NCBI GenBank assembly: GCA_965249595.1
Contig: OZ252242.1
Coordinates: 197,433-261,432, forward strand
Source of the DNA: Chloroflexota bacterium
GTDB taxonomy: Bacteria > Chloroflexota > UBA11872 > VXNJ01
DNA length: 64,000 nucleotides
Direction: 5' to 3'
A program made the translations under genes and the position numbers. This document shows, piece after piece, positions 1 through 55,877 of the stretch. How positions within the stretch are numbered: the stretch's first letter is position 1; every line of letters begins with the position of its first letter. Below the pieces are notes generated by a model that ran no database searches, was not told the origin of the DNA, and saw only the letters and a list, made by a program, of their open reading frames with translations.

Positions 1-236
1 ACAAGGGCTTCGTGAAGATGATTGCCGATGGTGTCAGCGGCGAACTGTTGGGGGTCCACGTGCTGGGGCCGGAGGGGCCGGACCTGATCCACGAGGCGGT
101 CGTGGCAATGCACTATCGGGCCACCGTGCAGGACTTCTGCCGCATCCCGCACTTGCATCCGACACTGGCCGAAATCATGATTGAACCGGCTGAAATGCTC
201 GCATCGCAGCTATCTCTCGCAACGGCGGCAAATTAG
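1..236 (+). CDS. C-terminal dimerisation domain of a pyridine nucleotide-disulphide oxidoreductase (dihydrolipoamide dehydrogenase-like), 5' end cut by the window edge
   Basis: KGFVKMIAD..GELLGVHVLGP..DLIHE..HPTLAE motif; no C-terminal Cys-Cys, so not MerA. Confidence 0.85.
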   Translation, partial: KGFVKMIADGVSGELLGVHVLGPEGPDLIHEAVVAMHYRATVQDFCRIPHLHPTLAEIMIEPAEMLASQLSLATAAN

Positions 237-20839: not shown

Positions 20840-20860
20840 ACCGGACCACGATACACAAAA

Positions 20861-28344: not shown

Positions 28345-30735
28345 GTGACGGCCGCTGCCGGCGGGGTGGTGCTCCCCAAACTTCTGGGGGCGCGCGTGAA
28401 ACGTCGCGAGGACCCGCGCTTAATCCAGGGCCAGGCGACTTACGTCGACGATCTCAAGCTCCCGGGCATGTTGCATGCCGCGTTCAAGCGCTCGGATATC
28501 GCCCACGGGATCATTTCCAATATCGACACCGGCGCGGCCTCATCGATCGAGGGAGTCGAGTTGGTGATGACAGGCGCCCAGCTGGCCGAACACATCGGCC
28601 CGATGCCCAGGGTGACAGCCTTTCGGGCACCGGACCAACCACCCGTGGCCATCGACCGGGTGCGCTACGTAGGCGAGCCTGTGGCCGTGGTGGTGGCAAC
28701 CGATCGCTACGTCGCCCGCGACGCCGTCGACGCCATCTTGGTGGAGTACTCAGAACTCCCGGCCGTGGTTGATCCGGAGCATGCAGTGTCCGGTGATGCG
28801 GCCACCCTACACGAAGGCTTTGACCGCAACATCGCGGTTGAGATCCGCAGCGGCGGCACCGCGGTCGATCCTGCAACCACCCTTCCCTCCGCCGAGAGCA
28901 CCCTCGAGAACGCCTTTGCCCGGGCCGATGTAATCGTCAGGCAGAAGATGCTTAACCAGCGTCTTGCCCCCAACGCGACCGAGCCCCGCGGGGTCGTCGC
29001 GCGGTTCGAGCACGGAACCAATTACCTGACCATCTGGAGCTCCACCCAGACCCCGCATCTGTTGCGCCAAATGGTGGCCAGGGTGCTGGGGCTCGGAGAA
29101 CATCAGGTAAGGGCCATTGCCCCGGAGGTTGGGGGCGGATTCGGGGCCAAGAAGATCTACGGTGAGGACTACGTGATCGCCGCGCTGGCGAGGATTGCCC
29201 GGGCCCCGACCAAGTGGATCGAGGACCGCACCGAGGCCTTCCTGGCCACCTCCCACGGTCGCGATATACACGGCGACATCGAGATCGCCGCCCAGCGCGA
29301 CGGCAAGATTCTGGCTCTGCGGGCCAAACTCGTCGCCGACATCGGCGCCTACCAGGCGCTGCTGACCGCGGGAATCCCCACCAACGCCGGGCGGATGATC
29401 AACGGCGTCTATTCGATTCCCATCATCTGGCACCAATTGACCGAGGTGTACACCAACAAGACCCCCACCGACGCCTACCGCGGCGCCGGCCGACCCGAGG
29501 GCATCTATTTCCTGGAACGCTCCATCGACATCTTGGCCCACGAACTGGGCCTTGATCCGGCTGAAATCCGACGCCGCAATTTCATCCCCGCCGACCAGTT
29601 CCCCTACAAGACCGCGACCGGCCTTCTCTACGATTCCGGCGACTATGCCCCGACCCTCGATCGAGCGCTCGCCATCGCCGACTGGGAGGGGCTGCTTGCC
29701 AAACGCGATGCCGCCCGCGCCGAAGGCCGAATAATCGGCGTGGGTATTTCGTTCTACGTCGAGATCTGCGGCCGCGGCCCATCGACCAAAGGCGGGACCG
29801 GCGGCTGGGAACACTCGGCGGTGACGATCGAGCGCGGCGGGACGATTACCGCCACCACCGGAACCACCTCCCACGGCCAGGGTCACGAGACTACTTTCGC
29901 TCAGATGCTGGCCGACCACTTCTCGATTCCGATGCAGGACGTGACCATCCTGCACGGCGATACCGGCGTGGTAAAGCAGGGCGTAGGCACTTTCGGGAGC
30001 CGCTCGCAGGCCGTTGGCGGACCCGCGCTGTTGGCGGCGGCAGCCAAGGCCGGCGCAAAGATGAAGAGGTTCGCAGCCGCCCTCATGGCCGATGACGAGA
30101 TCGACCCCGAGGATTTGGAATTTGCCCACGGACGCATCCACGTCGCCGGTCGACCCGAAATCTCGCTCTCGTTTGCCGAAGTCGCCGACTTCGCCTACAT
30201 TCCGGTGCCGTTGCCGCCGGGGCTGGAGCCCGGCCTCTCGGAAGAGGCGTTTTTTGAGCCCGCGAACAACACATACCCATTTGGGTGCCACATTTCGATG
30301 GTTGAGATAGACCGCGAGACCGGCCAGCCCAGTCTGCTCAAGCTGATCGCGGTCGACGACTGCGGCAACGTCATTAACCCCCTCATAGTCGATGGCCAGG
30401 TCCACGGCGGACTGGCCCAGGGCATCGGGCAGGCGTTGTGCGAGGAAGTTCTCTTCGACCAACACGGGCAACCGCTGACGGCCAGCTTCATGGACTACGT
30501 GATGCCGCGGGCGGCTGATCTTCCGGTGTTTGAGCTGGATCGTACCGTCACCCCCACTCCCTTGAACCCGCTGGGGGCCAAGGGCGTGGGCGAGGCAGGC
30601 ACGATCGGCGCCGCGCCTTGTTTGATGAACGCCGCTGTCGACGCGCTTTCCCCGCTCGGGGTCAAGCACATCGACATGCCGCTGCGCCCTGAACGGTTGT
30701 GGCGACTGATCCAGCAGGGCCGGCGCGGCCCTTGA
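28345..30735 (+). CDS. coxL: Xanthine-oxidase family molybdopterin large subunit, form II CoxL/CutA-like (copy 1)
   Basis: [35 protein letters not shown] and KGVGEAG. Confidence 0.9.
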   Translation: MTAAAGGVVLPKLLGARVKRREDPRLIQGQATYVDDLKLPGMLHAAFKRSDIAHGIISNIDTGAASSIEGVELVMTGAQLAEHIGPMPRVTAFRAPDQPPVAIDRVRYVGEPVAVVVATDRYVARDAVDAILVEYSELPAVVDPEHAVSGDAATLHEGFDRNIAVEIRSGGTAVDPATTLPSAESTLENAFARADVIVRQKMLNQRLAPNATEPRGVVARFEHGTNYLTIWSSTQTPHLLRQMVARVLGLGEHQVRAIAPEVGGGFGAKKIYGEDYVIAALARIARAPTKWIEDRTEAFLATSHGRDIHGDIEIAAQRDGKILALRAKLVADIGAYQALLTAGIPTNAGRMINGVYSIPIIWHQLTEVYTNKTPTDAYRGAGRPEGIYFLERSIDILAHELGLDPAEIRRRNFIPADQFPYKTATGLLYDSGDYAPTLDRALAIADWEGLLAKRDAARAEGRIIGVGISFYVEICGRGPSTKGGTGGWEHSAVTIERGGTITATTGTTSHGQGHETTFAQMLADHFSIPMQDVTILHGDTGVVKQGVGTFGSRSQAVGGPALLAAAAKAGAKMKRFAAALMADDEIDPEDLEFAHGRIHVAGRPEISLSFAEVADFAYIPVPLPPGLEPGLSEEAFFEPANNTYPFGCHISMVEIDRETGQPSLLKLIAVDDCGNVINPLIVDGQVHGGLAQGIGQALCEEVLFDQHGQPLTASFMDYVMPRAADLPVFELDRTVTPTPLNPLGAKGVGEAGTIGAAPCLMNAAVDALSPLGVKHIDMPLRPERLWRLIQQGRRGP

Positions 30736-30861
30736 CCTGGAATTGTTGAACCGGTATCTTCCGGTCCCACGGAGCGGGTCTTGATTGATGGCCAGCAAAG
30801 TTGCTAACCGGCGTGCAAAGACATCGCCGTAAAACGTGAAATCGGCTCGGATAGAATCGGG

Positions 30862-31000
30862 CGGCTCGGTCCAAAACCAATAGTTCGATCCGCTTGCCGG
30901 AAGGGTGTAAATCCCCCTGTTTCGGCAAAAAGCATCCGAAGGCGTTGGTTTGGGCGGCACCTGGCTGAGCTGGCGTTGACCGTGCCGGCAGGAGGGGATT
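30862..31000 (+). promoter_or_regulatory. Candidate structured 5' leader / translational RNA switch for coxG-S-L-M
   Basis: Long nested helix at 30862-30972; segment 30910-30927 can alternatively pair with the SD region at 30983-31000. Confidence 0.45.
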
Positions 31001-31004
31001 CGAG

Positions 31005-31451
31005 GTGGAGATAACCGGTGAACACCGATTTGCCGGACCGCGACCATTGCTTTATCGGATGCTTTTGGATCCAGAAGTGCTGGCCGCCACGCTGCCCGGG
31101 GTGGAGAGCTTTGATTTAGTTGACCCCGACACCTATGAGTCCAGCATGCGGGTGGGAATTGCCGCTGTACGCGGCACCTACCAGGGGCGTGTGGAGGTCC
31201 TTGAGCGGGTTCCGAACGAGTCATTCCGGCTTCGCATCGAAGGCGCCGGTCGGCCCGGTGGCGGTACCGCCGACGCGCGCATTCAGCTGGAGGAATCCGG
31301 CGCCGAAACCGTCATGCGTTACCGGGCCGAGGTGCGCGCAAGGGGCACCATTGCTCGCCTTGGCAACCGCCTGATGGGCGGGGCCGCCCGATTGTTGATC
31401 GGGCAGTTCTGCAAGGAAATCGAACAAAGAATTGAGAAAAGCGCCGCTTAG
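31005..31451 (+). CDS. coxG: CoxG / SRPBCC accessory protein
   Basis: L.DPEVL...[12 protein letters not shown] and G.IARLG.RL. Confidence 0.88.
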
Positions 31452-39465: not shown

Positions 39466-40521
39466 TCAACGGGGCGTGGCAGTGAGAATCTCGGGTCCGC
39501 CAGAGCCTATCAGGACAAGGTCTTCGATGCGGATCCCGCCCCAGTCGGGCAAGTATATTCCCGGCTCAATTGAATGAACCATTCCAACTCCCAAGGTATC
39601 GGTGGAAGTGGCGGCCAGGCGCGGGGCTTCGTGAATTTCCAATCCCACGCCATGTCCCAAACCGTGTCCGAAGAAGTCGCCATAGCCGGCACCGTCAATT
39701 ACCGCTCGCGCTGCCGCATCGGCGGCCTTGCCGCCGGCCCCGGCTACGGAAGCTTCGATTCCGGCGCGATTGGCGGCGAGCACGATTTGATAGATCTCAC
39801 AAAACCGGGCGCCGGGTTGCCCGGCACAAAAGGTCCGTGTGATGTCGGAATGGTATCCGTCAAGCAGCGCCCCCAAATCCACGACCACCGCGTCGCCTTT
39901 GGCGATTACTGTGTTCGAAGGCATATGGTGCGGACGCGCCGAATTTATTCCGGTGGCCACGATGATGTCAAAACCGGCTTTCTCGGCCCCGGCGTCCAAA
40001 AAAGCAGAATACAGGTTGGCGGCGACAGCCCGTTCGGTGACCCCCGGAGCGACCAATTTGGCGGCCATTCCCATGACTTCATCGGCGATGGCCACGGCTT
40101 GCCGCAGCGTTGCGATTTCAGCTTCATCTTTGTATAAGCGCAGCTCTTCAACCCACCCGGCCGCACTCACCAGGCGAGGACCAGCAGCGCTGATTCGTCG
40201 GTGTCGGCGCACCGACAGATCGGCATCGTCAAACCCAACCTGATCCTGACCGTCAGCCAGCGCCCAGGCCAGCGCCATCAACGCCGGATCGCCGCTGCCG
40301 ATATGGGTGTTAAAACCCTGGGCCTGGGCCGCCGATTGGACCTCGTACCGCCCGTCGGTAAACAACTCGCGTCGCCCGGGTCCCACCAAAAGGGCGCCGG
40401 CGGACCCCGAAAAACCGGAGAGGTAGCGCCGGTTGGGGTCCGCCGTAACAAGCAGCGACGAGACCTCGGCTTGCCGACAGCGATCGTCGATCCTGAGGCA
40501 GCGGTTAAGCGCTTCCGTCAT
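39466..40521 (-). CDS. Xaa-Pro aminopeptidase (M24B)
   Basis: YLSGFSGS, TDGRY, DLG...GY.SDITRT, HGLGHGVGLEIHE and EPGIY..GIRIED. Confidence 0.95.
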   Translation of the reverse strand: MTEALNRCLRIDDRCRQAEVSSLLVTADPNRRYLSGFSGSAGALLVGPGRRELFTDGRYEVQSAAQAQGFNTHIGSGDPALMALAWALADGQDQVGFDDADLSVRRHRRISAAGPRLVSAAGWVEELRLYKDEAEIATLRQAVAIADEVMGMAAKLVAPGVTERAVAANLYSAFLDAGAEKAGFDIIVATGINSARPHHMPSNTVIAKGDAVVVDLGALLDGYHSDITRTFCAGQPGARFCEIYQIVLAANRAGIEASVAGAGGKAADAAARAVIDGAGYGDFFGHGLGHGVGLEIHEAPRLAATSTDTLGVGMVHSIEPGIYLPDWGGIRIEDLVLIGSGGPEILTATPR

Positions 40522-41573
40522 GGGTTAGACCCTCTCTGGCCAATAAATCTTGCCACATTTTGCAGGTGCTCTTCGTAGGTCGCGGCAAATGCGTGGGAGC
40601 CATCGCCACGGGCGACAAAGAAAAGGTAATCGGTAAGGGCCGGTTCTAAAACGGCACGAATTGAGGCCGCTCCGGGGCTGGCGATGGGGCCCGGCGGCAG
40701 CCCGCCATGAACGTACGTGTTGTAGGACGAGTCAAATTCCAAATCAGCCGATGTGAGATCGGCCTTCCACCAATTTCCGCCGGCAACATCGGCGACCGCG
40801 TACTGAACCGTCGGGTCGGCTTGAAGCAGAAATCCTTGGTCGAGACGATTGAGATAAACGCTGGCGATAAGCGGGCGCTCCTCGTCTAAGACGGCTTCGC
40901 GCTCGATGATCGACGCCAAAGTGACGACCTGGTGATCGCTCAGTCCCAAGGCGGCGGCGGCCTGCCGCTGCTGTGGGCCATATATCTCACCAAATCGATC
41001 CAGCATGGCGTCGACAAACTCACGGGTCGTTGTCTGGACGCCGACAAAGTAGGTGTCGGGAAACAGATATCCCTCAAGATTCGCGCCGCTGGTTGGATCG
41101 GGCAAGAAATCATGCGGAAATTCACTCAGGTCAAGATCGACCAATTCGAGAAATTCATCACTGAAAAAGACCCCGGTGGATTCAAGCTGGTCGGCCACCT
41201 GTTCGGCCCGCCACCCTTCGATTACGGTGACCACCCGGTCGGCGACCTGCCCTCCCTGCAGTTCATCGATGATCTCGTCCATCGACATGCTCGACCGCAA
41301 GAGATACTGGCCCGGTTGCAGCGAATTGATCAATCCGCGGCGCTCCAGGGCCAGCCGAAATATCAGATCAGAAAGGATTAGCCCTTCCTCTTGCAGATCG
41401 GCCCCGATTTCCGCTGCGCCGGACCCTGACTCCACGGTAAAGAGCACCGAATAATCCGAACTTTCGTCCGGCGGGCGGGCCAGGATGCTGACCGCCGAAT
41501 AGACCAAATAGACGACTAAGACCAAACTGACCAGCGCCAGGATCAGGATTTGGGCAGATCGCAACAGACCCAT
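40518..41573 (-). CDS. mltG: Endolytic transglycosylase MltG
   Basis: N-terminal TM, LEGYLFPDTY, LASIIERE, LQADPTVQY, GLPPGPI and YLFFVA. Confidence 0.96.
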   Translation of the reverse strand: MGLLRSAQILILALVSLVLVVYLVYSAVSILARPPDESSDYSVLFTVESGSGAAEIGADLQEEGLILSDLIFRLALERRGLINSLQPGQYLLRSSMSMDEIIDELQGGQVADRVVTVIEGWRAEQVADQLESTGVFFSDEFLELVDLDLSEFPHDFLPDPTSGANLEGYLFPDTYFVGVQTTTREFVDAMLDRFGEIYGPQQRQAAAALGLSDHQVVTLASIIEREAVLDEERPLIASVYLNRLDQGFLLQADPTVQYAVADVAGGNWWKADLTSADLEFDSSYNTYVHGGLPPGPIASPGAASIRAVLEPALTDYLFFVARGDGSHAFAATYEEHLQNVARFIGQRGSNP

Positions 41574-41575
41574 CT

Positions 41576-41977
41576 TTAGCCTTCCGGCCGCTGGCTGCTC
41601 AGGAAGTGTTCGAGCAGGACTACGGCCGCGATCGCATCATCGGCTTTGGGTCCGTGGCGATATTTGGCCTCCGCAGTGGTAAAGCTCTCGTTGACATATT
41701 CGACCGGTTCTTTGCGCCCCAAGAGCAGCTGCTGGGCCATAGCCCGGATGCGCGCTGAAGAATCGGTGACGCCGTCGTTCCGATCGAGTGGCAATCCAAC
41801 TAGCAACAGATCGGCTCTTTGATCGTCGAGCACTTCGGCCAATTCGGCCCGACCGCCCGAACGCGTCCGGCGATCGATTACCGTTTGCGGGGTGATAAGC
41901 GTGCCGGTCGGGTCACACCGCGCGACACCGATGCGGCGGCCCGATATGTCCAGGGCCACGATCACGCCGTAACTCAA
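41576..41977 (-). CDS. ruvX: YqgF/RuvX family nuclease
   Basis: ALD....RIGVA.CD, VGLP, ESFTT and DAIAA..LL. Confidence 0.9.
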   Translation of the reverse strand: MSYGVIVALDISGRRIGVARCDPTGTLITPQTVIDRRTRSGGRAELAEVLDDQRADLLLVGLPLDRNDGVTDSSARIRAMAQQLLLGRKEPVEYVNESFTTAEAKYRHGPKADDAIAAVVLLEHFLSSQRPEG

Positions 41978-43698
41978 GCCAGCCTGACCACATTTACCGC
42001 AATGCGGGCGGGTAAAAGAGTTATCGAATCGCCAAATGGCGACCAGATACGCAACTGCGAATCAGCCACCCCAGGTAGCGAATCCACAAAGGCGGCGGCA
42101 ACTGAAGTTGGTTGGCCGGCGATCTGTCGACGGATCAAATCGGGTTCGATCAGGTTCTCCAACTCTCCTTGGGCCTGATATGAAATTGTCACCGTATTGC
42201 CCAAGGTCGCCGACAGGTTGGGCTCACTAACGGTCAGCGAACCAGGCAGCAGCCGGTACTGGGCCGGGCCATCGCTCCAATCCTCGAGTGAGGCGACGGC
42301 GAGACGTTCTAAGTCAGCACGGTCAAAGGCGGTGGCATTAATGCTCAATTCGACACCATAGGTAAAGGTGACGACCCCGTCATCACCCAGTTGCGACGAG
42401 TAAACGGAAGTAAATTCGGGGCGCAGCTGCGATCCCGGCAACACCTGCGCGTATTCGCCGCCGGTCAGCTGAGCTCGGAGCTGGTCCTGGGCCTGGGTCC
42501 GCAACCGGGCGGTCAATTCATCGAGCGCAGTGAGACGATCGTTCGCGGTTACGAACGCGCTACTGGTATCGGCGCCGCCGGTAAGCGGCTCGGGCTGGGA
42601 CACTTCAATCAGCCCTCCAAAGGATCCGGCCGCCGTCGCTATGGCACCGCTCGCCAGGTTGGAGTCGGCGCCGGCGATCTCGGCCTCGATGGTTACCCGC
42701 ATCCCGCCAACGGAGCGAATTGCCACCACCGGTGGCAGATCGCTGGCGCCATAGGGATAGTTTTCCAAAATCTCAATTCCGTCCAAAGCTTCGGCCAGCG
42801 CCTGCGCTGACTCTGCTTGATCGTCTTCGGGCGTCGGGTCGTCTTGGGGCGGCGTCGGGTCGTCTTCGGGCGTCGGGTCGTCTTGCGGCGGCGAAATCGG
42901 ATCAACGGTCGGAAGCACTAAATCTTGCAGTTGGGCCTGCGGCGGCAGGGCGAGGGCTGCGGCAGTTAGAAAACGCCTTCCGTCGGCGGTCACCAGGACC
43001 GTGCCCTGTGGGACGGTAAGAATCGCGCTGGTCAGATTGGTGAGCAACACTGCCCCGCTGGCGCGTGATGATTCGATAACCCGGGCCCCGGTACCGCTTC
43101 GGCTAATCCGGCCGCTGGCGGTTCCGCTGATCACCCGGCCGGGCAACAGGCGCTGGCGCGGGCTCACATCGGCAAAGCTGGGGTTGGCGTAAGCGGTCAA
43201 ATGAACTTGCTGGACCCATCGTGTCGGTACTATATCGACCTGTGCGCTGGGATAGAGGACCAGCAGCCAGAGCGCCAGAGTGCCCAGCAGGATTCCCGTG
43301 AGCAATAGCGGACCGCCCAGCCACAACCCCAGCGATCTTCGGCCGTCGGGCACGCCGGCGAGATTCATCAGCATCAGGGTGCGCCGGATCGGCGCGATAA
43401 GTCCGGATGGACGGGACTGGTCGATCCGGGCATTTATTCCCTCCCGGCGGGCTAACTCGACCACCTCTCGATCCGGACTTTCAAGCACCAGATCCCAGCC
43501 AGATTTGCCGCTGGCAGCGGCCAATCGCATAATCCCCACGCTCTCGGCCAGCGGCGCGCCCCACCGTCCAACAACCACCGTCAGCGATTCCCCGGTGGCG
43601 GCCCGCGCCGCCACCCTCGCTAGGGCCGCAGCAGTGGATTCTTGCGCGGAAATTGAGAGGCGTAGGCGGCCCGCGCGGCCCGCAGCGGAGAGTTTCAT
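41974..43698 (-). CDS. Membrane-anchored baseplate J/gp47-like domain protein
   Basis: N-terminal ~110-aa domain, one TM, then ASG.V...N....VPQGT.L.T.DG.RF.T, V.IEA...G...N...G.I and V....P.TGG.D. Confidence 0.7.
   Translation of the reverse strand: MKLSAAGRAGRLRLSISAQESTAAALARVAARAATGESLTVVVGRWGAPLAESVGIMRLAAASGKSGWDLVLESPDREVVELARREGINARIDQSRPSGLIAPIRRTLMLMNLAGVPDGRRSLGLWLGGPLLLTGILLGTLALWLLVLYPSAQVDIVPTRWVQQVHLTAYANPSFADVSPRQRLLPGRVISGTASGRISRSGTGARVIESSRASGAVLLTNLTSAILTVPQGTVLVTADGRRFLTAAALALPPQAQLQDLVLPTVDPISPPQDDPTPEDDPTPPQDDPTPEDDQAESAQALAEALDGIEILENYPYGASDLPPVVAIRSVGGMRVTIEAEIAGADSNLASGAIATAAGSFGGLIEVSQPEPLTGGADTSSAFVTANDRLTALDELTARLRTQAQDQLRAQLTGGEYAQVLPGSQLRPEFTSVYSSQLGDDGVVTFTYGVELSINATAFDRADLERLAVASLEDWSDGPAQYRLLPGSLTVSEPNLSATLGNTVTISYQAQGELENLIEPDLIRRQIAGQPTSVAAAFVDSLPGVADSQLRIWSPFGDSITLLPARIAVNVVRLA
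42821..42893. repeat. 39-bp tandem repeat (about 1.9 copies) encoding PPQDDPTPEDDPTPPQDDPTPEDD
   Basis: TCGTCTTCGGGCGTCGGGTCGTCTTG(G/C)GGCGGCG at 42821 and 42860. Confidence 0.85.
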
Positions 43699-43712
43699 TC
43701 CCGCTGCTACGG

Positions 43713-46349
43713 TCAGTCGTCTCTCTCGTGGAGCTGTCCGACGAGAACCTCTCGCCCGGCACTGAGAGCCCTCGACAAGGATTCGGCGTCGCCGCCGCCG
43801 CCGCTGGCCCGATCCGCTCGGCCGCCGCCGCCGCCGCCGAGGACGGCTGAAGCGCTACGTACCACGGCCGCTGAATCGGCCCCCCGGGCAACCGCCAACG
43901 AAGACGCGGTCGCCAGAACCTGCGGCCTACCGTCAATTACCGATCCCAACAAGAAGGCGTGGTCCAGACCCAATCGAGCGGACAGACTGGCCGAGATCTG
44001 CTGCAGCGTCTCCGAATCATCGGCATCGACCCTTTTGACCAGCAATTCCAGGCCCCGGCAGTCGACGGCCTCGGCGGCCAATTCACGCGCAACAGCAGCG
44101 GCGATTTGGGATTTCAGGCGCGTCAGCTCGCGTTGGTTGGCATTTCGTTCTTCCATCAATTGCTTAACGCGCCCCGGCGCGTCGCCAGGGCTGGCCCCGA
44201 GCAGGTGGGCAACCGCCTCAAGATCGGCGCTGGCCTGACGAGCCGTCGTCGCGGCGCTGCTACCGGTAACCGCCTCAATGCGGCGCACGCCGGAGCCGAT
44301 GCTCTGGTGGCCGGTGATGAGGAAGAGGCCTACCTGGGCCGTATTGGCCACATGCGTACCCCCACAAAGTTCGAGTGACTGCTCACCGATCCGGACCATT
44401 CGCACCCGCTCGCCGTATTTTTCGCCAAACAGCGCTATGGCGCCCTGCTCGATCGCCGCTTCCACTTCGGTCAAATCGGTTTCCACCGGCAATGCCGATA
44501 GCACCGCCGCGTTTACCGCCGCCTCGATTTCGGCCAATCGCGGTCCATCAATTGGATCTGAGTAGTTAAAGTCAAACCGCAAGTGATCGGGGGCCACCAG
44601 CGATCCGGCCTGCCGGGCATGGTCACTTAGCGACTCGCGCAATGCGGCGTGCAGAAGATGGGTTGCGGTGTGATTGCGACAGATCGCCGCCCGTCGCCCA
44701 GCGTCGATTGATGCGGCGACTCTGGTACCGCTGGAGAGGCTGCCTTTGGCAATTTCGGCCCGATGGAATATCGTTCCTTCATCGTTCTTTTGGGCGTCGG
44801 TCACGGTGGCCTCGCCACCGTCCCAGGAAATCGTCCCAGCATCGCCCAGTTGGCCGCCGGCCTCGCCATAGAACGGAGTCTGATCGAGTACGATTTGCAG
44901 TTGCTCTCCCTCACTGGCGCTGTCCCTGCTCTCGCCATCGACATACAGCGCAATAACGGTCGCCGAATCGGAGGCGATCCCGTCATAGCCAGCGAAAACA
45001 CTCGGGTCAAGCCCGCCGGGCAGTTGAGCGGCGGTGCGGGTCCCGCGCCGCGATCGTTCCTGCTGGGCGGCCATGGCCTCGGCGTAGCCCTGTTCGTCGA
45101 CGGAAAGTTGACGGGCGGCGGCGGCCAAACGCAGGTGTTCGATGGGCAATCCCAACGTGTCGTGCAGGTGAAAGGCCAATTCGCCGCTTATGACCTTTTC
45201 CACTCCTTGCCCGGTAATTTCATCATCGAGGATGGAAATCGCCCGCCGCATTGTTCCACCGAATCGATCCTCCTCCTCGGCCACCACGGCCAGGATTTGG
45301 TCCGAGCGATTGGCCACCTCCGGATAGGCTCCTGCTACCGCCTCTATGGCGGCCTGGCAGACGTCTTCCATCAACGGCCCGTCCACCCCCATCTGGCGCG
45401 CCGTACCGACCGCCCGCCGGAGCAATCGGCGCAGGATGAAACCACGACCGGTGTTGGAAGGCAGCACGCCATCGGCAATTAGGAAAGGTAGGGCGCGCCC
45501 GTGTTCGGCTACCGTACGCAGGGCTCGAACATGATCCCGGTTGCCCATATCGGGCTTAAGCGCTGCTGCGGCGGCGGCCACGATATCGCGGTACAGATCG
45601 GTTTCATACACCGACGCGCAGTCCTGCATGAGCACCACCCAGCGCTCGAATCCGGCGCCGGTGTCGACGCCGTTGGTGGGCAATTCACTGAGACTGCCGT
45701 CCGGGCCCTGTTCGAATTGATTAAAGACCAAATTCCAAAGCTCAATGAATCGGTCGTCGCCGCTGGCCGTACCGGTCTCTGGTTGGCCAGGTTCCGGGGG
45801 ACGCAAACGGTAGTGGATTTCGCTGTCCGGCCCACACGGCCCCGACTGGCCGGTCGGGCCCCAAAAGTTGTCGACCCGTCCATGGAATTCGATTCGCTCA
45901 GCCGGTATCCCGATCTCATCGTGCCAGATTCGAAATGACTCCATATCGCGCGGCAGATTGCCTTCGCCGGCAAAGCAGGTGATCCAGATCTCATCTGGAT
46001 CGAGCCCAACTTTGGAAGTTAATAACTCATAGGCCCAGGTGATCGCCTCGCGTTTGAAGTAATCGCCGAAAGTGAAATTGCCCAGCATCTCAAACAGCGT
46101 GAGGTGCGAGGCATCGCCAACCGATTCGATATCCGAAGTCCGGAAGCACTTTTGCGCGGTCGCAATTCGCGGATGAGGGGAAGTCGTCGATCCGGAATAG
46201 TAGGGTTTAAATTGCTGCATTCCAGCCGACGTGAAAAGCACGCTCGGATCGTTTTGGGGCACCAGTGATGAACTGGGCAGGACCAGGTGATCGCGGGCCG
46301 CGAAGAAATCTAGGAATATGCGGCGAACCGTATCGGCCGGAAATGTCAA
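43713..46349 (-). CDS. alaS: Alanine-tRNA ligase
   Basis: FTSAGMQQFK, FEMLGNF, GPCGP.SEI, ELWNLVF, TPFY.E.GGQ, NHTATHLL and ELCGGTH. Confidence 0.99.
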   Translation of the reverse strand: MTFPADTVRRIFLDFFAARDHLVLPSSSLVPQNDPSVLFTSAGMQQFKPYYSGSTTSPHPRIATAQKCFRTSDIESVGDASHLTLFEMLGNFTFGDYFKREAITWAYELLTSKVGLDPDEIWITCFAGEGNLPRDMESFRIWHDEIGIPAERIEFHGRVDNFWGPTGQSGPCGPDSEIHYRLRPPEPGQPETGTASGDDRFIELWNLVFNQFEQGPDGSLSELPTNGVDTGAGFERWVVLMQDCASVYETDLYRDIVAAAAAALKPDMGNRDHVRALRTVAEHGRALPFLIADGVLPSNTGRGFILRRLLRRAVGTARQMGVDGPLMEDVCQAAIEAVAGAYPEVANRSDQILAVVAEEEDRFGGTMRRAISILDDEITGQGVEKVISGELAFHLHDTLGLPIEHLRLAAAARQLSVDEQGYAEAMAAQQERSRRGTRTAAQLPGGLDPSVFAGYDGIASDSATVIALYVDGESRDSASEGEQLQIVLDQTPFYGEAGGQLGDAGTISWDGGEATVTDAQKNDEGTIFHRAEIAKGSLSSGTRVAASIDAGRRAAICRNHTATHLLHAALRESLSDHARQAGSLVAPDHLRFDFNYSDPIDGPRLAEIEAAVNAAVLSALPVETDLTEVEAAIEQGAIALFGEKYGERVRMVRIGEQSLELCGGTHVANTAQVGLFLITGHQSIGSGVRRIEAVTGSSAATTARQASADLEAVAHLLGASPGDAPGRVKQLMEERNANQRELTRLKSQIAAAVARELAAEAVDCRGLELLVKRVDADDSETLQQISASLSARLGLDHAFLLGSVIDGRPQVLATASSLAVARGADSAAVVRSASAVLGGGGGGRADRASGGGGDAESLSRALSAGREVLVGQLHERDD

Positions 46350-46608: not shown

Positions 46609-46638
46609 ATTATAGAAATGCCCCAAATTTTTTAGCAA
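46609..46638 (-). promoter_or_regulatory. Putative sigma70 promoter for the small ORF / alaS operon
   Basis: TTGCTA-N18-TATAAT on the minus strand with an A-tract spacer. Confidence 0.55.
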
Positions 46639-48037: not shown

Positions 48038-48868
48038 ATGACCGAGCAGGTGACATATCTGGCGGGGCAATTTTCACCCTTTGCCGTACTCCAAATTGTC
48101 ATCGTAACGCTGGTCGTGTACACCGGTTTGCTGGTCTTTCAAAACACCCTGGCCGATATATTGCTGCGCGGTGTGATGGTCTTGGTGCTGTTGGTATTCG
48201 TGTTGGGATTCTTCTTCCAGCTCCCGTTGGCGGGCTGGATCGCCGACGCCGCACCTTCGCTGTTCCTGGTGGTGGCGGTCGTTTTCGCGCCCGAGATTCG
48301 ACGGGTATTGGAACGCCTGGGACGCTCAAGCACAACGCTCGGGATGGCTTGGAGCAGCACGGGCTGGGAGGATGAAGAAACGATCGACGCCATTGCCCGG
48401 GCGGCTTCGGACCTCTCACGGCGATCTTGGGGGGCACTCATGGTGATCGAGCGTGACGTCGGCCTGGCCGACTTTGCCAGCGCCGGAACACTCATCAACG
48501 GGCGAGTTTCGCCCGCCCTGCTGCTGACCATATTTTTCCCCAGCTCAGAGTTGCACGACTTGGCAGTAATCATTCGCCGTCACACCATAATCTCGGCTGG
48601 CTCAATGCTGCCGATGACCTCTGAGAGCGTGCCCCGTCACCTGGGTTCGCGTCACTGTGCGGCATTGGGCATAACCGAACAGACTGACGCCGTATCGGTC
48701 GTGGTGTCGGAGGAGACCGGCGGAATCTCCCTAGCAGTTGATGGACGTCTAGCTGAACACTTAACCGAAGAGCAATTGCGGCGGCGGCTCCAGGCGATCC
48801 TGACCCCTGGCCGCAGCGCCCGGCGTCGCGGTTGGCTGCGTCTTCCGCACAGGGCGGCCCGGTATTAG
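48038..48868 (+). CDS. dacA: Membrane diadenylate cyclase CdaA/DacA with variant motifs
   Basis: 3 TM, F.PEIRR.LE.LG, GAL.VIER, LHDLAV, GSRHCAA and VVSEETG.IS. Confidence 0.88.
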   Translation: MTEQVTYLAGQFSPFAVLQIVIVTLVVYTGLLVFQNTLADILLRGVMVLVLLVFVLGFFFQLPLAGWIADAAPSLFLVVAVVFAPEIRRVLERLGRSSTTLGMAWSSTGWEDEETIDAIARAASDLSRRSWGALMVIERDVGLADFASAGTLINGRVSPALLLTIFFPSSELHDLAVIIRRHTIISAGSMLPMTSESVPRHLGSRHCAALGITEQTDAVSVVVSEETGGISLAVDGRLAEHLTEEQLRRRLQAILTPGRSARRRGWLRLPHRAARY

Positions 48869-50237
48869 CAACTACTTTGATCGGGAGCACCTCCGGCGGG
48901 TTGGTCTGCGCGTCCTGCGCCTCGTCCAAAGCAGCGCCAACTGGCGATTTTGGGTCGCCATCGGATTTGGAATCGCAGTCTGGATCGCGTTGACATTAGA
49001 GCAAAATCCGCGCGTTACCGCCTTTACGGTTACCAATATTCCGGTCGATTTGACCGATCTCCAACCGGGGTTGATAGCGGTTTCCGACCCGATCCCGGTC
49101 GCGGTTGTGCTACAGGGGCTGCGCGACGATCTCGAGCAGGTCACGATCCGCAATTTCCGCGCAACTCTGCCGCTTGACGATCTTGCAGCCGGCAGCCATT
49201 TCGTAGAGGTTGCTTTGGACGTATCCGCGGCTACCTCGGTGGAAGTGGTGCGGGTCGTCCCCGCCGAACTACCCGTGACTTTAGAGGCGCTGGTTACTCG
49301 AGCGATCCCAATTGAATTGATCAGCTCCGGTCAACCGCAATCGGGCTTCGCGATTGACGCCGGTGGGATTACGGTGACACCGGCGGAGGCTACCATGACG
49401 GGCCGTGAAAGTCTCCTCCAGACCGCCGACCGCGTGAAGATCGAATTGGATCTCGATGAATCTGCGCGTACTTCAGCTATACAGCTAACTGGGCGACCGG
49501 TTGACGCCGCCGGAAATGAAATCTTCGGGCTGAGCCTTGTTCCCAGGTTGTTTACGGTTTTGGTGCCGGTCAGCCCAATCAGAGTCACGCGCAACGTCCC
49601 GGTCGCAGTTGAATTGTTCGGTAATCCGGCACCCGGATTTGCGGTGGGGTCGGTGGATGTGAATCCTCCAACGACGCGCATCAGTGGATTGCCGGAGGCG
49701 GTAGCCACGGTGGAGAGCGTGAGCACCGAAACGGTGGTCGTGCGCGGCCAGCGCCAACTTTCAACCGTAGAAGTAACACTGGTGGCGCCCGACGGCGTGA
49801 CCCTTGTTAATCCCGGCGTACGCCATAGTGTGACCGTCGATGTCGACACGATAGTGTCGACTGCGTCATTGGCGGACGTGATCGAGATCAATCTGCCCGA
49901 TGAATTCCTCGTCTCCATCTCCCCGCCGATTGCCTCCATCGTGGTAGAAGGAACAAGCCAAGCCGTTTTGGGATTGACGCCGCAACAGCTTGAAACCTCG
50001 GTAGATATCGCGGACCAGCCGATCATCGGCGTGCACATCCTCACGCCGAGGGTTGTTGCTCCAGCCAGCGTGAGGGTCATATCGATAGATCCGGTGGTTG
50101 TAACAGTCACCGTTACCAACGCCCCAGCGGCGCCGACGCCAGTCCCGACGGCCGAAGCGCCGGAAACATCCGAAGATCCAAACGCCGCAGCATCAGGTCC
50201 GCAACCGGACACCGGGGAACCTGCAGCGGCGCAATAA
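48864..50237 (+). CDS. cdaR: CdaR/YbbR-repeat regulator of the diadenylate cyclase (start probably non-canonical)
   Basis: YbbR-like repeats (G.P..GFA....V.P....I.G); TM anchor lies in frame upstream of the called TTG at 48990; follows dacA. Confidence 0.85.
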   Translation: MSNYFDREHLRRVGLRVLRLVQSSANWRFWVAIGFGIAVWIALTLEQNPRVTAFTVTNIPVDLTDLQPGLIAVSDPIPVAVVLQGLRDDLEQVTIRNFRATLPLDDLAAGSHFVEVALDVSAATSVEVVRVVPAELPVTLEALVTRAIPIELISSGQPQSGFAIDAGGITVTPAEATMTGRESLLQTADRVKIELDLDESARTSAIQLTGRPVDAAGNEIFGLSLVPRLFTVLVPVSPIRVTRNVPVAVELFGNPAPGFAVGSVDVNPPTTRISGLPEAVATVESVSTETVVVRGQRQLSTVEVTLVAPDGVTLVNPGVRHSVTVDVDTIVSTASLADVIEINLPDEFLVSISPPIASIVVEGTSQAVLGLTPQQLETSVDIADQPIIGVHILTPRVVAPASVRVISIDPVVVTVTVTNAPAAPTPVPTAEAPETSEDPNAAASGPQPDTGEPAAAQ

Positions 50238-51886: not shown

Positions 51887-53110
51887 CTAACTGGCAATGA
51901 CCCGTTGGTATACACGCTCAAGGCTGCGAGCGGCGCTGTCGGGCGACAAATCCCCACTGATGCGCATCCGGCTGTAGTGATCGACATCGCGCCGCCGCGG
52001 CTGTTCGATCAGCTCGCCGATTGCTCCCGCCAACTGCCGGGGACCGGCCGATGGCGGGAGCAGGCGCCCGTTGCGGCCGGGCATAACGTAAGTCGGCGCC
52101 TCGCCAACGTTATGGGCCACAACCGGCAGCCCGACCACCAACAGATCGACGAATCGAATCGGGCAGGCCGCCGCATTGACCGGAGTGTCCAGCGCCGGCA
52201 GGCAGGCGACGTCACAACTGGCCAGGATTGCCGGAAGCAAATCCCGCTCAACCCAGCCTAGGTGCAGGACATCATCGGTGACGCCGGACCGATTAAGTAC
52301 GCCGCGCAGGCGATCGGATTCAGATTGACCGCCATCTCCCAAGACCACGATTCGGGTTCCCGGCAAGGTGGTCCGTATCGCTTCGATCAGTGCTGCATAG
52401 GAATCGACCGGGTACTCCGCAAATCGGGTGTAGAAAAGAACAACTTTTTGGTCCAGGTCTAAGCCCAGCGCCTTGCGGCCGCTCGTGCGCAGATCCTCGC
52501 GCGCCCAATCGTGATAGCGTTCCTGATCGTAAAAATTGGCGACTTTGGTTTGCAGTTGGGTTCGGCCGAGCCGCTCTAACAGGCGGTTACTGGCAGCGGT
52601 CACCGCGTCGTTGGTTCGCAGGTAGACCTGCTCCTGCAATCTGCCCCAAGCGCGCCGCAGCGAGGACGGGAATTTTAGAGGTGACCATGCCTCCGGGCCC
52701 TCCCAGGCGTCAGTGTCCAATATCACCGCCGGGGCTGCCCGAATTGCCCAGAGCAGGGCCAGCGCCAGGCCGGTGGCACCGGTGGGTTTGAAGATGTGGA
52801 TCGCATCGTAATCACCCGTCGCCAAGCGCCAGAATCCGCCCAGCGCCAGACCCACCTGATACAGCGGTCGTCGGAAGGGCGATGTCGGACCCCGACCGGT
52901 TCCTGGCAGCGCGACGAAGTTCAATGTCTGATTCGCCGCCGATCCGGTCAATCGATCGTTCGTTAGTGGGTCGGCCGGGCCGGGCAGAAACACGTCGACC
53001 TGATGTCCACTGGCAGCCAGGGCCCGGGCCATCGGTAATACGCGGCCCGAGGTGGTACCGCCCGGGCCGACCGGGGTGGGGGCCAAGATTCCTATGCGCA
53101 AATTAGGCAT
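51887..53110 (-). CDS. GT4-like glycosyltransferase
   Basis: GT-B pattern: ARALA..GHQV, LGWV, DVACLP and GLPVVA..VGE. Confidence 0.8.
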   Translation of the reverse strand: MPNLRIGILAPTPVGPGGTTSGRVLPMARALAASGHQVDVFLPGPADPLTNDRLTGSAANQTLNFVALPGTGRGPTSPFRRPLYQVGLALGGFWRLATGDYDAIHIFKPTGATGLALALLWAIRAAPAVILDTDAWEGPEAWSPLKFPSSLRRAWGRLQEQVYLRTNDAVTAASNRLLERLGRTQLQTKVANFYDQERYHDWAREDLRTSGRKALGLDLDQKVVLFYTRFAEYPVDSYAALIEAIRTTLPGTRIVVLGDGGQSESDRLRGVLNRSGVTDDVLHLGWVERDLLPAILASCDVACLPALDTPVNAAACPIRFVDLLVVGLPVVAHNVGEAPTYVMPGRNGRLLPPSAGPRQLAGAIGELIEQPRRRDVDHYSRMRISGDLSPDSAARSLERVYQRVIAS

Positions 53111-55877
53111 GACGTCGACGCGAACGCCAAAGGCCGGCGGCGAACAGCAATACCGTTAACACCCCGGCGACGCCGGCGACGATAGTGCCAGCCATCAGGC
53201 GCGGTTCCTCATATTCGAACCGGACCAGAGAGGCGTCCACCGGCACTTCGACGGATAGGAACATCTCGTCGGCCGGATTAACTTCCACTGCTTCCTCCCC
53301 AATAAATGCCTGCCAACCCCCGTAATAAGTCTGACGCAGGACGAGATTACCGCCGCCATCTTCCACAGCGATGACCACCCTCTCCGCCGCGGCGCTTATC
53401 ACCGTAGCGCCGTTGATGACCGGGAAGCCGCCGCGCATCAATACCGCCGGCGGTTCAGGGAGCAATTGCCGGTAGATTCTCAATGAGCCAATCTCATCGA
53501 CTTGGAATGTCGGGCCGCTGACGATTCCTGCCTTGTCGGCGGTCAGACCGGCCAGCGGTAGCGAACGGATCGAATCGCCGTCGATTAAGGCCAGACCCAG
53601 TATTTCAAGCGGCGCTTCCGCCGACACTGCCAGCGAGGAAATCACATTCGGCGTGGGCAGGGTTATGAATTCGACCACCGAATCAAGAATTACCGGCGCG
53701 CTGTCGGGCGATGCCAGCGGCCCCACCTCGGTGGCCGCCTTATTTGTGCGAATTGGCGTCCCCAGACCATCTAGGAAGCCGGCGTCAACTACGGTATCGG
53801 ACTCGCCCGCCACCACCACCGTGGCCAACGGTCCGCTCGCCGACGTTCGCACCGCCAACGCAAGTGAATCGATGGATGCCGGTGGATCGACCCGCAGATT
53901 CAGTCGCCCGCCGGCTGAAATTGCAACCGATGCATCGGAGTTGATCGCAACCGGCTGTCCGCTTGGGTCCTGGGTTCGGACGTCGGAGTAGTCGTCCGCA
54001 ATTACCACCGAAGTACCCAGCGCTGAGAGCAATTGTGGCGACGGGAATTGGCCACGAATGACAAACTCGTGCTGCAGCAGGGAATCCTCCTTGCCCGGTC
54101 TAGGTTCTAAAAAGCGGTCGCGGTAGGCGACGTAGGAACCCAGCGGCAGCAGTCCGCCATCGAATCCATCGGCGCTGGGGACGGAGAAGGCCGAAGACTG
54201 ATTGGGCGAAAGCGAATCCCGGTTCTTTATCACCGTGGCGTAGGCACCAAGCACGGTCGGGCCGTAGTGCTGAAATGGTTGGTAAATTTCTTGCTGGAAT
54301 CGTTGGGCGTCGACGGAATAGAAAACGTCAACTATTGAGAGCGTGCGCGGGGCGGACGGGCCACGCTCCAGTCGCTCGACAACCGGGCCCGGCTCGGTGT
54401 AGGCATCCGGCGGAATCGCCAGCTTGTTCATATCCAATGGCTGCTGGGCCAATAGCAACTCGGCAGCAACCAAGACGGGCAGACCAATTCGGGCCAGACC
54501 TTCCCCGCTGGCGCAGTTGCGGAGGGTGATGAAACCGGCGGCGGCGGCGGCAAGCCAGGCCACCAGGGTCAAATCCGAAACCGCACCGGTACCCCAGCTG
54601 GTAAATGCGAGAACGAATATCGCGGCGCCGATTAGGGCCAGGGCTCGCCCGGCCCCGGCGTACCAGGTCGCCCGCGAGATGTGAACGGCACGATCGGTGC
54701 CGATCGCGGCCAGCGCGCTTAGCGAGAAAGTCGTTAACAATAACCATCGGGCAGGGACCCTAAATTGATCAAATCCGGGCAATTCGTCTGAGAGTAACCC
54801 AAATAACGGGGTGGTCAATCCAAGTGCAATCCAGACTCCCAGCACACTTAAGCCCAGAAACAAGAACCCCTCAGACCGGCGCTGTTTGTCAAGCAATGCG
54901 AGGGCCGCCAGGAGGATCGTGATCACCCCGACATAAGAGACAAACTCCTCGCTGAACGGTCGCTCGACAAACGTCGGCAGCAGCGCCGACCCAATCAATT
55001 CCTTGGGCAAGGCAAATGCGTTTTGATGCCAGATCGGCAAGCCTTCGGCGCGCAGCGAAAGCGACCGCAAAGTCAATCCCGGCAGCAATTGGGCGGCGCT
55101 CAATCCCAGACCCAAGGCCGCTGCGACCACAAATGCCCCCAATGCCCGGGCCAAGCCGGGTAAGGCCTCCGCGCCGGAGACGATTGATATTCGAAAGATT
55201 CGGGCCGTTAGATAGAGGCCGGTCAGGGCCAGTGAAATGTACTGCGCCTGCGGGTGACCGGCCAGATATTGCAATGCGAACAGCACCGCCAATATCGCGG
55301 TCGTCGTCAGCTGCGGTCGCGCCAGCAGGCGGTCAACGCAGAGGAGGATCAACGGCAACCAGGCCAGCACTGCCAGTTGGTTTGGCAGTCCCATCCGGGC
55401 GGCCAGGTAACCGCCCAGAGCGAACGCCATCGCACCAACTAAGGCACCCAGCCACCCGGTTCGCAGGGCCCGACGGCAGAAGGCCATCATCCCTAGCCCG
55501 GCGATGTAGGTGTGCAGTACCAGGCCGGAGGTCAGAACCGCGATCGGCTCCGCCCACGACAGGGCCAGGTTGACTGGATAGAGGACAGCCGTTTGCGGGT
55601 TGGCCAAAAATGGAACCCCCAGCAAACGATACGGATCCCAGAGCGGCAAACGGCCGTCGGCCAAGGCGGCGTAGAGGTGGGTCAGGTTGGCCAGGGCGTA
55701 GTTTTGCAGGTCGCTGCCGCCAGGGGCCAACCCCTCAAATAGGAAGCGCCGAAAAAACAGCGCCAATACGACCGTAAAAGCGGCGATCGCCAGCACGCCG
55801 GGTCTGTCAGCGGCAGCGGCCGGCAGGTTACCCAGCACCGCGCGCACCCGGTCGCCCCGGCGCAAGTTGGCCATCAA
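53103..55877 (-). CDS. YfhO-family multi-TM protein (GT-C-like)
   Basis: LPLWDPY..LG.PFLANPQ...LYP, LAGHPQ, AAQLLP, FR.PARW and C-terminal Y..GW.A....YE.P. Confidence 0.85.
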   Translation of the reverse strand: MMANLRRGDRVRAVLGNLPAAAADRPGVLAIAAFTVVLALFFRRFLFEGLAPGGSDLQNYALANLTHLYAALADGRLPLWDPYRLLGVPFLANPQTAVLYPVNLALSWAEPIAVLTSGLVLHTYIAGLGMMAFCRRALRTGWLGALVGAMAFALGGYLAARMGLPNQLAVLAWLPLILLCVDRLLARPQLTTTAILAVLFALQYLAGHPQAQYISLALTGLYLTARIFRISIVSGAEALPGLARALGAFVVAAALGLGLSAAQLLPGLTLRSLSLRAEGLPIWHQNAFALPKELIGSALLPTFVERPFSEEFVSYVGVITILLAALALLDKQRRSEGFLFLGLSVLGVWIALGLTTPLFGLLSDELPGFDQFRVPARWLLLTTFSLSALAAIGTDRAVHISRATWYAGAGRALALIGAAIFVLAFTSWGTGAVSDLTLVAWLAAAAAGFITLRNCASGEGLARIGLPVLVAAELLLAQQPLDMNKLAIPPDAYTEPGPVVERLERGPSAPRTLSIVDVFYSVDAQRFQQEIYQPFQHYGPTVLGAYATVIKNRDSLSPNQSSAFSVPSADGFDGGLLPLGSYVAYRDRFLEPRPGKEDSLLQHEFVIRGQFPSPQLLSALGTSVVIADDYSDVRTQDPSGQPVAINSDASVAISAGGRLNLRVDPPASIDSLALAVRTSASGPLATVVVAGESDTVVDAGFLDGLGTPIRTNKAATEVGPLASPDSAPVILDSVVEFITLPTPNVISSLAVSAEAPLEILGLALIDGDSIRSLPLAGLTADKAGIVSGPTFQVDEIGSLRIYRQLLPEPPAVLMRGGFPVINGATVISAAAERVVIAVEDGGGNLVLRQTYYGGWQAFIGEEAVEVNPADEMFLSVEVPVDASLVRFEYEEPRLMAGTIVAGVAGVLTVLLFAAGLWRSRRRHA

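Follow-up and report, generated by a model that had tools for sequence, protein, structure and literature searches.

The alaS-ruvX-mltG cluster of a Chloroflexota bacterium contains an additional gene for a large membrane protein. In a stretch of 64,000 nucleotides of its genome (GenBank assembly GCA_965249595.1, contig OZ252242.1, positions 197,433 to 261,432; hereafter the window), an open reading frame (ORF) of 574 amino acids (aa), named X here, lies on the minus strand at 41974-43698 between the gene for alanyl-tRNA synthetase (alaS) and that for a YqgF-type nuclease (ruvX). X is a cellular, phylum-wide bitopic protein of the envelope that stands outside any contractile machine, and it is a new variant, cellular and membrane-anchored, whose basis is a domain already known from phages, Baseplate_J. 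The gene, the elements of its topology, the homology of its barrel, its conservation and synteny, the absence of machine genes, the fusions of its extracytoplasmic domain (ectodomain) to kinases and its restriction to wall-bearing genomes are all established. As to function, we put at about even the chance that X is an envelope-exposed module that binds or senses a component of the wall, acts through a small transducer domain in the cytoplasm and is expressed together with ruvX and with mltG, the gene for a peptidoglycan lytic transglycosylase.

The architecture of X is seen in an AlphaFold2 model built on an alignment of 48 sequences, which has a mean predicted local distance difference test score (pLDDT) of 87.5 and scores at least 90 in 398 residues. 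Residues 9-96 (43411-43674; this and all following segments of X are on the minus strand) are predicted to form a cytoplasmic alpha/beta domain of the STAS- or flavodoxin-like kind, in which strands and helices alternate as b-a-b-a-b-a-b over residues 12-92 with pLDDT of 83-96. A helix at 98-115 separates it from the sole transmembrane (TM) helix at 123-147 (43258-43332), which hydropathy places at 123-141 and the model at 128-147. Beyond the membrane, the model is rich in beta structure over residues 151-251. This part begins with a membrane-proximal strand region (151-203, 43090-43248; strands at 151-201 with pLDDT of about 96), for which there is no structural match, the matches obtained by VIA-align covering residues 6-96 and 206-571. 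Next comes a beta-barrel at 204-382 (42553-43089), whose homology to the core of Baseplate_J is seen by VIA-align and by the family profile; it is interrupted by a genus-specific insertion at 252-325 (42724-42945), and further beta structure is found at 309-382. The insertion comprises a low-complexity Pro/Asp-rich segment with a PPQDDPTPEDD-like near-repeat, and a helix; it is disordered in the model (pLDDT below 50 at 273-287) and, in an alignment, P0007 and P0009, two relatives at a greater distance, do not have it. An apparent match of X in a cyanobacterial metagenome-assembled genome (MAG; L014) was rejected as spurious, being caused by this low-complexity insertion. The rest of the protein (383-574, 41977-42552), which is conserved within the family, is modeled as a long helix at 385-410 and alpha/beta domains that extend to the C-terminus.

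The N-terminal domain resembles several folds. VIA-align relates it to STAS, receiver, Rossmann-like and flavodoxin-like folds at Z of 5-7.5, a non-specific result, and the values for STAS chains (5.6-6.9) are level with those for receiver, B12-binding and Rossmann-like folds. It matches no Pfam family, STAS included, and a search of the ESM Atlas with this domain alone gave no usable match; in one relative (P0031), a weak match to STAS_2 (7e-4) falls below the cut-off. An NCBIfam scan of X yields a weak match to choice_anch_R (0.029) only. An N-in topology is indicated by paralogues in which the same TM helix and ectodomain follow a protein kinase: since the fused kinase domain must be cytoplasmic, the ectodomain would be outside. 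A first-pass annotation of the window, made from the letters alone, had proposed a probable cytoplasmic N-terminal domain and one TM helix, and both are borne out by the model, by hydropathy and, for the topology, by these paralogues.

The resemblance to baseplate J proteins is marginal for X alone and firm at the level of the family and of the structure. Pfam Baseplate_J (PF04865) matches residues 326-378 of X with 18.6 bits (E 0.0012), under its gathering threshold of 21.1 bits, and the PHROG family phrog_6, 'baseplate wedge subunit', matches residues 211-378 (6.8e-9). Among the 48 aligned relatives, 39 match PF04865 at E<=0.01, the best at 3.7e-14, and the family profile matches the PDB chains of phiCD508 gp65 (9.4e-8), phi812 ORF62 (1.1e-7) and Mu gp47 (3.5e-5). 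In the profile alignment, the motifs GxxGN and GGxD are common to the X family and the phage J chains, and G343, N347, G374 and G375 of X, which fall in these motifs, show no or almost no variation among family members. Baseplate structures account for all ten of the best Foldseek matches of the full model (E 8e-5 to 1.7e-3), and VIA-align superposes residues 204-382 on residues 79-181 of Mu gp47 (9ki1_H) with Z of 12.1 and a root-mean-square deviation (rmsd) of 2.8 Å over 99 residues at 25% identity. The baseplate J motifs that the first-pass annotation had placed in the distal region are thus found in the barrel, by profile and by structure alike, in a protein whose homologues are not confined to prophage or contractile loci. 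Fifteen of the 18 top VIA-align rows are baseplate J-type chains, and the other three are the barrel of GlxA from Streptomyces lividans (Z 10.4-10.8).

X shares a homologous beta-barrel with the J proteins of PF04865 (Baseplate J, P2 gpJ, Mu gp47, T4 gp6 and TssF), and the barrel is the one domain shown to be common to the two; likeness of the whole ectodomain to J is not demonstrated. Members of the X family cover about positions 11-113 of the 255 of the profile, in contrast to 10-253 in a canonical J protein (L111, described below). That extent was found in seven of nine proteins having a match in one set; in a second set of 24 long representatives, ten match PF04865 and one extends to profile position 155. 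X further differs from the J proteins in its TM helix and cytoplasmic domain, in its location in a housekeeping operon without genes for gp25, gpI, sheath or spike, and in a C-terminal half without detectable J similarity. The barrel of GlxA (residues 148-256; PDB 4unm, 5lxz and 5lqi) has the same fold, with rmsd of 2.7-4.9 Å over 94-99 residues and 18% identity. The barrel is an accessory domain of GlxA, which is a copper radical oxidase, whereas X has neither an oxidase domain nor a Pfam GlxA match. GlxA, too, is a membrane-tethered extracytoplasmic protein of a monoderm.

No contractile machine accompanies X. Besides X, none of the 60 scanned ORFs of the window matches a tail, sheath, capsid or type VI secretion system family at E<=1e-5, as the first-pass annotation had noted, and the observation now extends to the whole genome (2.10 Mb in a single contig, 96.6% complete) for four families: Phage_sheath_1 (PF04984), GPW_gp25 (PF04965), Tail_P2_I (PF09684) and Phage_GPD (PF05954) have no match in it at E<=0.1. 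X is the only PF04865 match of this genome. The appearance of a true wedge module is known from a control, in which the X family profile was searched in 101 genomes from the phylum to which a cyanobacterial MAG belongs. Five of them match, all at profile positions 205-293 only and in ORFs of 370-393 aa; the best of them (L111), of 393 aa, is a canonical J protein with genes for gp25 and P2 gpI on either side. X is not such a module. In view of these data, there is virtually no chance that X is a remnant of a prophage or contractile injection system that fell into the operon by accident: for all the weak Pfam and PHROG matches to baseplate families, conservation in 41 of 41 relatives and at the same locus across the phylum refutes it, the reading frame is intact, no other phage gene is found in the window and none of the four contractile families in the genome, tblastn with the TM helix and ectodomain against 50,697 phage records gives nothing at E<=1e-3, and the GC profile has no foreign island, X lying in the 0.59-0.66 range like its neighbors.

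Those 41 relatives are genomes of the order to which the window's genome belongs. Across the phylum, X is present in 234 of 301 evenly sampled genomes, in 207 of 269 high-quality ones and in 120 of 166 genera, and this phylogenetic profile identifies it as a conserved cellular gene. In a library of 1.84 billion proteins, 1376 cluster representatives match X at E<=1e-3. The nearest clusters in the ESM Atlas are mostly from Chloroflexota; weaker ones labeled Absconditibacteriota and Saccharimonadota are leads only.

The distribution of X is linked to that of the peptidoglycan wall. MltG (PF02618) is present in 266 of the same 301 genomes, which divide into 232 with both X and MltG, 2 with X alone, 34 with MltG alone and 33 with neither (without five genomes flagged as unpublished, which these tallies include, X is in 229 of 296 and the table reads 228, 1, 34 and 33). 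X is therefore absent from 33 of the 35 genomes that lack MltG, and both exceptions (G221 and G274) are fragmented. The SEDS proteins FtsW/RodA are absent from all of the ten MltG-less, X-less genomes tested (ten families, 97-100% complete, 1.3-2.4 Mb), and they are present in the window's genome and in four X-less genomes that have MltG. Within the phylum, X is confined to members that have peptidoglycan, though not all of these carry it.

What stays constant in the family is the TM helix with the ectodomain, and conservation within X is strongest in the ectodomain, not in the cytoplasmic domain. The cytoplasmic part is variable: it is the small alpha/beta domain in the window's X, the same domain with an insert of about 350 aa in other members, and absent or divergent in a sister family (f2); one of the 48 aligned members has a zinc ribbon instead. 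In another family (f22), whose genomes have about five X-type matches each, including tandem arrays, it can be a protein kinase. Two of the three genes in each of two arrays (L053 and L055) encode an N-terminal Ser/Thr kinase that is followed by a single TM helix near residues 440-460 and then by the ectodomain of X, and Pfam Pkinase (PF00069) matches the two such genes of L053 at 8.5e-46 and 2e-40. Full-length, single-frame matches to kinase plus ectodomain number 11, in nine of 41 genomes and in seven genera (39 genera of this family were searched). X itself has no kinase domain by Pfam. By analogy, this pattern would fit an extracytoplasmic sensor or binding domain rather than a subunit of a fixed machine.

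The layout of the paralogues, with a cytoplasmic Pkinase domain, one TM helix and an ectodomain, is the same as that of the PASTA-domain Hanks kinases (PknB, PrkC, StkP and IreK), and because of this shared layout the ectodomain of X is read as a putative wall-sensing module. PASTA repeats are the sensor or binding domain of PknB-type kinases. The X-type ectodomain differs in being composed of a Baseplate_J barrel and alpha/beta domains instead of PASTA repeats, and the window's X is kinase-less. In the arrays, found in two genomes of one genus (L053:97-8305 and L055:7192-15588), a long form with the STAS-like N-terminal domain comes first and two kinase-fused forms follow, which suggests a possible kinase/substrate module in that one genus. 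An 846-aa protein with a kinase domain is also encoded about 1.7 kb downstream of mltG in another family (L045:10524-13061, plus strand; blastp to an L053 kinase, 6e-36); in that family X is not beside mltG, and the protein is not X-type at E<=1e-3.

In the window, X is the second gene of a tight cluster on the minus strand that begins with alaS (43713-46349; 878 aa; PF01411 tRNA-synt_2c, 2e-157; tRNA_SAD, 9e-16; DHHA1, 1.6e-5). The TGA stop codon of alaS is followed after 14 nucleotides by the ATG of X, and X ends with GCT TGA, where the TTG start codon of ruvX (41576-41977; 133 aa; PF03652, 8.6e-22) overlaps the stop codon of X as TTGA, an arrangement suggestive of translational coupling. 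The TAA of ruvX is separated by two nucleotides from the ATG of mltG (40518-41573; 351 aa), whose product matches YceG (PF02618) at 6.7e-88 over the full length of the profile (positions 1-275 of 275) and has an N-terminal TM helix (hydropathy window 1-19). The 574-aa gene between alaS and ruvX, with the gap of 14 bp, the TTGA overlap and mltG next in line, is thus as the first-pass annotation had described it, by ORFs and by reading of the junctions. From the coordinates, mltG overlaps by 4 bp a gene for an M24 (Xaa-Pro type) peptidase (39466-40521, minus strand; PF00557 Peptidase_M24, 8.5e-64), a homologue of which also follows mltG in four other loci (L056, L057, L058 and L064). Upstream of alaS, a promoter-like site (TTGCTA-18-TATAAT, 10 of 12 positions) at 46609-46638 on the minus strand is a possible promoter of the operon, as a consensus match that gives no evidence of function; the consensus scan found seven such sites, compared with 2.7 expected in shuffles. 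Terminator-like sites within the cluster do not exceed chance (nine found, 9.0 expected).

The vicinity of the cluster contains other genes related to the envelope. A gene with a DAC domain (of the cyclic di-AMP synthase type) and then a YbbR-repeat gene are located near the alaS operon at 48038-50237 on the plus strand; DAC-domain and YbbR genes form a signaling pair for envelope homeostasis. The window is also rich in genes for envelope glycans, with a GT4 glycosyltransferase adjoining a 924-aa YfhO-family membrane protein at 51887-55877 (minus strand) and further glycosyltransferases at 19694-23418 (plus strand). Two large ORFs of the window, of 805 aa at 28807-31224 (minus strand) and of 454 aa at 6662-8026 (plus strand), have no Pfam family at E<=1e-5.

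The order of the cluster is conserved well beyond the window. Nine of 11 close relatives have alaS-X-ruvX-mltG, and the other two are cut by contig ends. Among the 30 best-scoring loci of the phylum, taken with flanks of 1.5 kb, ruvX and/or mltG lies directly downstream of X in 29. In 96 of the 106 genomes for which the positions of both X and mltG are listed, mltG follows X on the same strand at a distance of 163-1483 bp, with a median of 632 bp. ruvX lies between them in 48 of 54 loci and X is directly followed by mltG in the other six, in a sample that was selected for X and mltG and is not independent, as 40 of the 54 were picked from the 96 adjacent pairs. mltG is found elsewhere in several families: alaS-X-ruvX is kept in f49 and, at three loci, in the divergent families f13 and f29, alaS-X at two loci in the likewise divergent f52 and f63, and X-ruvX in one genus of f9 (for f49 and f9, as seen in 16-kb regions). 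Two X-less families (f16 and f4; L059 and L060) have alaS-ruvX-mltG with nothing intervening. A distant relative of X on a low-GC (40-46%) metagenome contig (L105) is found in X-ruvX-mltG beside a divergently oriented alaS. That alaS (L105:4180-6033, minus strand) encodes a short alanyl-tRNA synthetase (AlaRS) of 617 aa without the C-terminal DHHA1, and genes for RNase J, FtsK and an HTH_25 (RodZ-like) protein are nearby.

alaS and ruvX are the oldest and most stable neighbors of X, and mltG is the usual third gene, not an obligatory one. The three-gene backbone is the same as that of the alaS-ruvX-mltG cluster of monoderms; what differs here is the large membrane-protein gene between alaS and ruvX. 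In Bacillota, small cytoplasmic proteins are encoded in this position, as in the alaS-yrzL-yrrK-yrzB-yrrL cluster of Bacillus subtilis. The first-pass annotation had proposed a possible role for X with MltG. Adjacency is indeed common, but a specific tie is not supported, given the more conserved alaS and ruvX neighbors and the families with mltG elsewhere. The link between X and MltG is one of synteny and co-absence only, and a complex prediction for residues 118-574 of X (54-row alignment) with MltG scores 0.00, which neither supports nor opposes a contact.

From these features, the following mechanism can be proposed. The constant part of X would consist of one TM helix and an extracytoplasmic domain around a barrel that shares ancestry with the Baseplate_J core. 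This ectodomain would bind or sense a component of the peptidoglycan-containing envelope, and it would relay information, or anchor a component, to interchangeable cytoplasmic domains, namely the small STAS-like alpha/beta domain in the alaS-ruvX form and the Hanks-type Ser/Thr kinase in the paralogues. X would be co-expressed with ruvX, and usually with mltG, from the tightly packed operon, by which its level might be tied to growth and wall turnover.

Several points weigh against this interpretation. Ligand binding and sensing by X are inferred from the architecture alone, and signaling and any contact of X with MltG are likewise only presumed. The STAS-like assignment of the N-terminal domain is weak. 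The kinase fusions were seen in one family only, and a set of 24 long representatives taken from the family at large contains no kinase. PASTA repeats were found in five of the five genomes tested, the window's included, and on this ground the idea that X replaces PASTA in the phylum is rejected; in the window's genome, a different part of the chromosome encodes four such repeats in a single frame (G000:C1:1077202-1077987). The 34 genomes that have MltG, and hence a wall, without X imply that X is dispensable for peptidoglycan growth. Related genomes are not independent, and the wall-less, X-less ones may be one clade, in which case their co-absence would be a single evolutionary event. The alaS-ruvX-mltG arrangement is itself ancient, being present in Bacillota and Actinomycetota, and X may keep its place in the operon through historical inertia.

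Alternatively, X might be an envelope anchor or adhesin, the ectodomain of which passively links the membrane to an outer layer of the wall (S-layer, sheath or polysaccharide) without any signaling. A sizeable ectodomain, well folded in the model and carried by just one TM helix, the restriction to wall-bearing genomes and the variable low-complexity Pro/Asp-rich insertion, of a type frequent in surface proteins, would agree with such a role, as would the barrel fold in common with GlxA, a protein involved in glycan deposition at hyphal tips. It would leave unexplained, however, the conserved folded cytoplasmic domain, the kinase-fused paralogues and the fixed position in a housekeeping operon, and we consider it unlikely.

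The first-pass annotation had itself favored a domesticated, ring-forming baseplate module, in which X would oligomerize in the envelope like a J wedge and organize division or wall synthesis, perhaps around MltG. The homology of the barrel to J proteins is real, the adjacency to mltG is conserved, X and MltG are both bitopic, and the top eight full-length Foldseek alignments to J proteins extend over 401-442 columns with probabilities of 0.94-1.0. However, these full-length alignments to J proteins have TM-scores of 0.14-0.25 and rmsd of 29-44 Å, and those of Foldseek and VIA-align that reach residue 573 of X do so at an rmsd of about 30 Å. In J proteins, the C-terminal part makes the inter-wedge ring, and the N-terminal helical part joins gp7, gpI or TssG. 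In X, a TM helix with beta strands takes the place of the latter, and neither gpI nor gp25 is encoded in the genome as a partner. The C-terminal half of X (383-574), which would be the counterpart of the ring-making part, has a pLDDT of 87.3 when modeled alone and finds nothing significant, the best Foldseek E being 0.25 and the best Z of VIA-align against 48,161 chains 4.5, with a model that may be imperfect in that its last 30 residues lost strands present in the full model. The fusion of the same ectodomain to kinases fits a sensor better. Ring formation is therefore unsupported, only the barrel at 204-382 matching J, and a ring module appears improbable. Descent from a phage is unsupported as well: the direction of descent cannot be told, phage records give no tblastn match, and the cellular membrane enzyme GlxA shares the barrel fold. 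What stands of the earlier proposal is a conserved, non-prophage membrane protein with a J-homologous domain in a housekeeping operon, in a genome without contractile machinery; what lacks support is the ring, the phage origin and the specific tie to MltG.

Very little probability is assigned to a function tied to AlaRS or RuvX, in which the N-terminal domain of X would tether or regulate an RNA-processing or translation activity of the cytoplasm at the membrane. The adjacencies of alaS to X and of X to ruvX do outlast that of X to mltG (f13, f29 and f49; f52 and f63), and the stop codon of X overlaps the start codon of ruvX. Such a function is hard to reconcile with the conservation of the ectodomain above that of the cytoplasmic domain, with the lineages in which the N-terminal domain is absent or replaced, with the loci in which mltG directly follows X without ruvX (six of 54), and with wall-less genomes that lack X and still need AlaRS and rRNA processing.

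No publication on the X family was found in the full-text literature, a search in which subscription journals were outside the scope. One report deals with genuine phage-like tail clusters, some of them in Chloroflexi, and does not concern the X gene (PMC4122934). Relatives of X are annotated automatically as 'Baseplate J-like' by precomputed PF04865 matches, and prophage finders could thus flag a core housekeeping operon; recognition of X as a phylum-wide, wall-associated membrane protein corrects this label. For a phylum with a poorly understood cell envelope, X is a testable candidate for envelope sensing, and the kinase-fused paralogues make it directly accessible to experiment through ligand-dependent phosphorylation. 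More tentatively, and with considerable doubt, the Baseplate_J barrel together with the alpha/beta domains may constitute an undescribed class of extracytoplasmic cell-wall sensors, ancient in the phylum and possibly present in candidate-phyla-radiation bacteria (an Atlas lead only), that would feed a STAS-like transducer from the alaS-ruvX-mltG operon and dedicated Ser/Thr kinases. The homology also opens the question of the barrel's role in true baseplates, where, by extension of the same doubtful proposal, the barrel of phages and injection systems might be an element for the recognition of walls or glycans and not a purely structural one.

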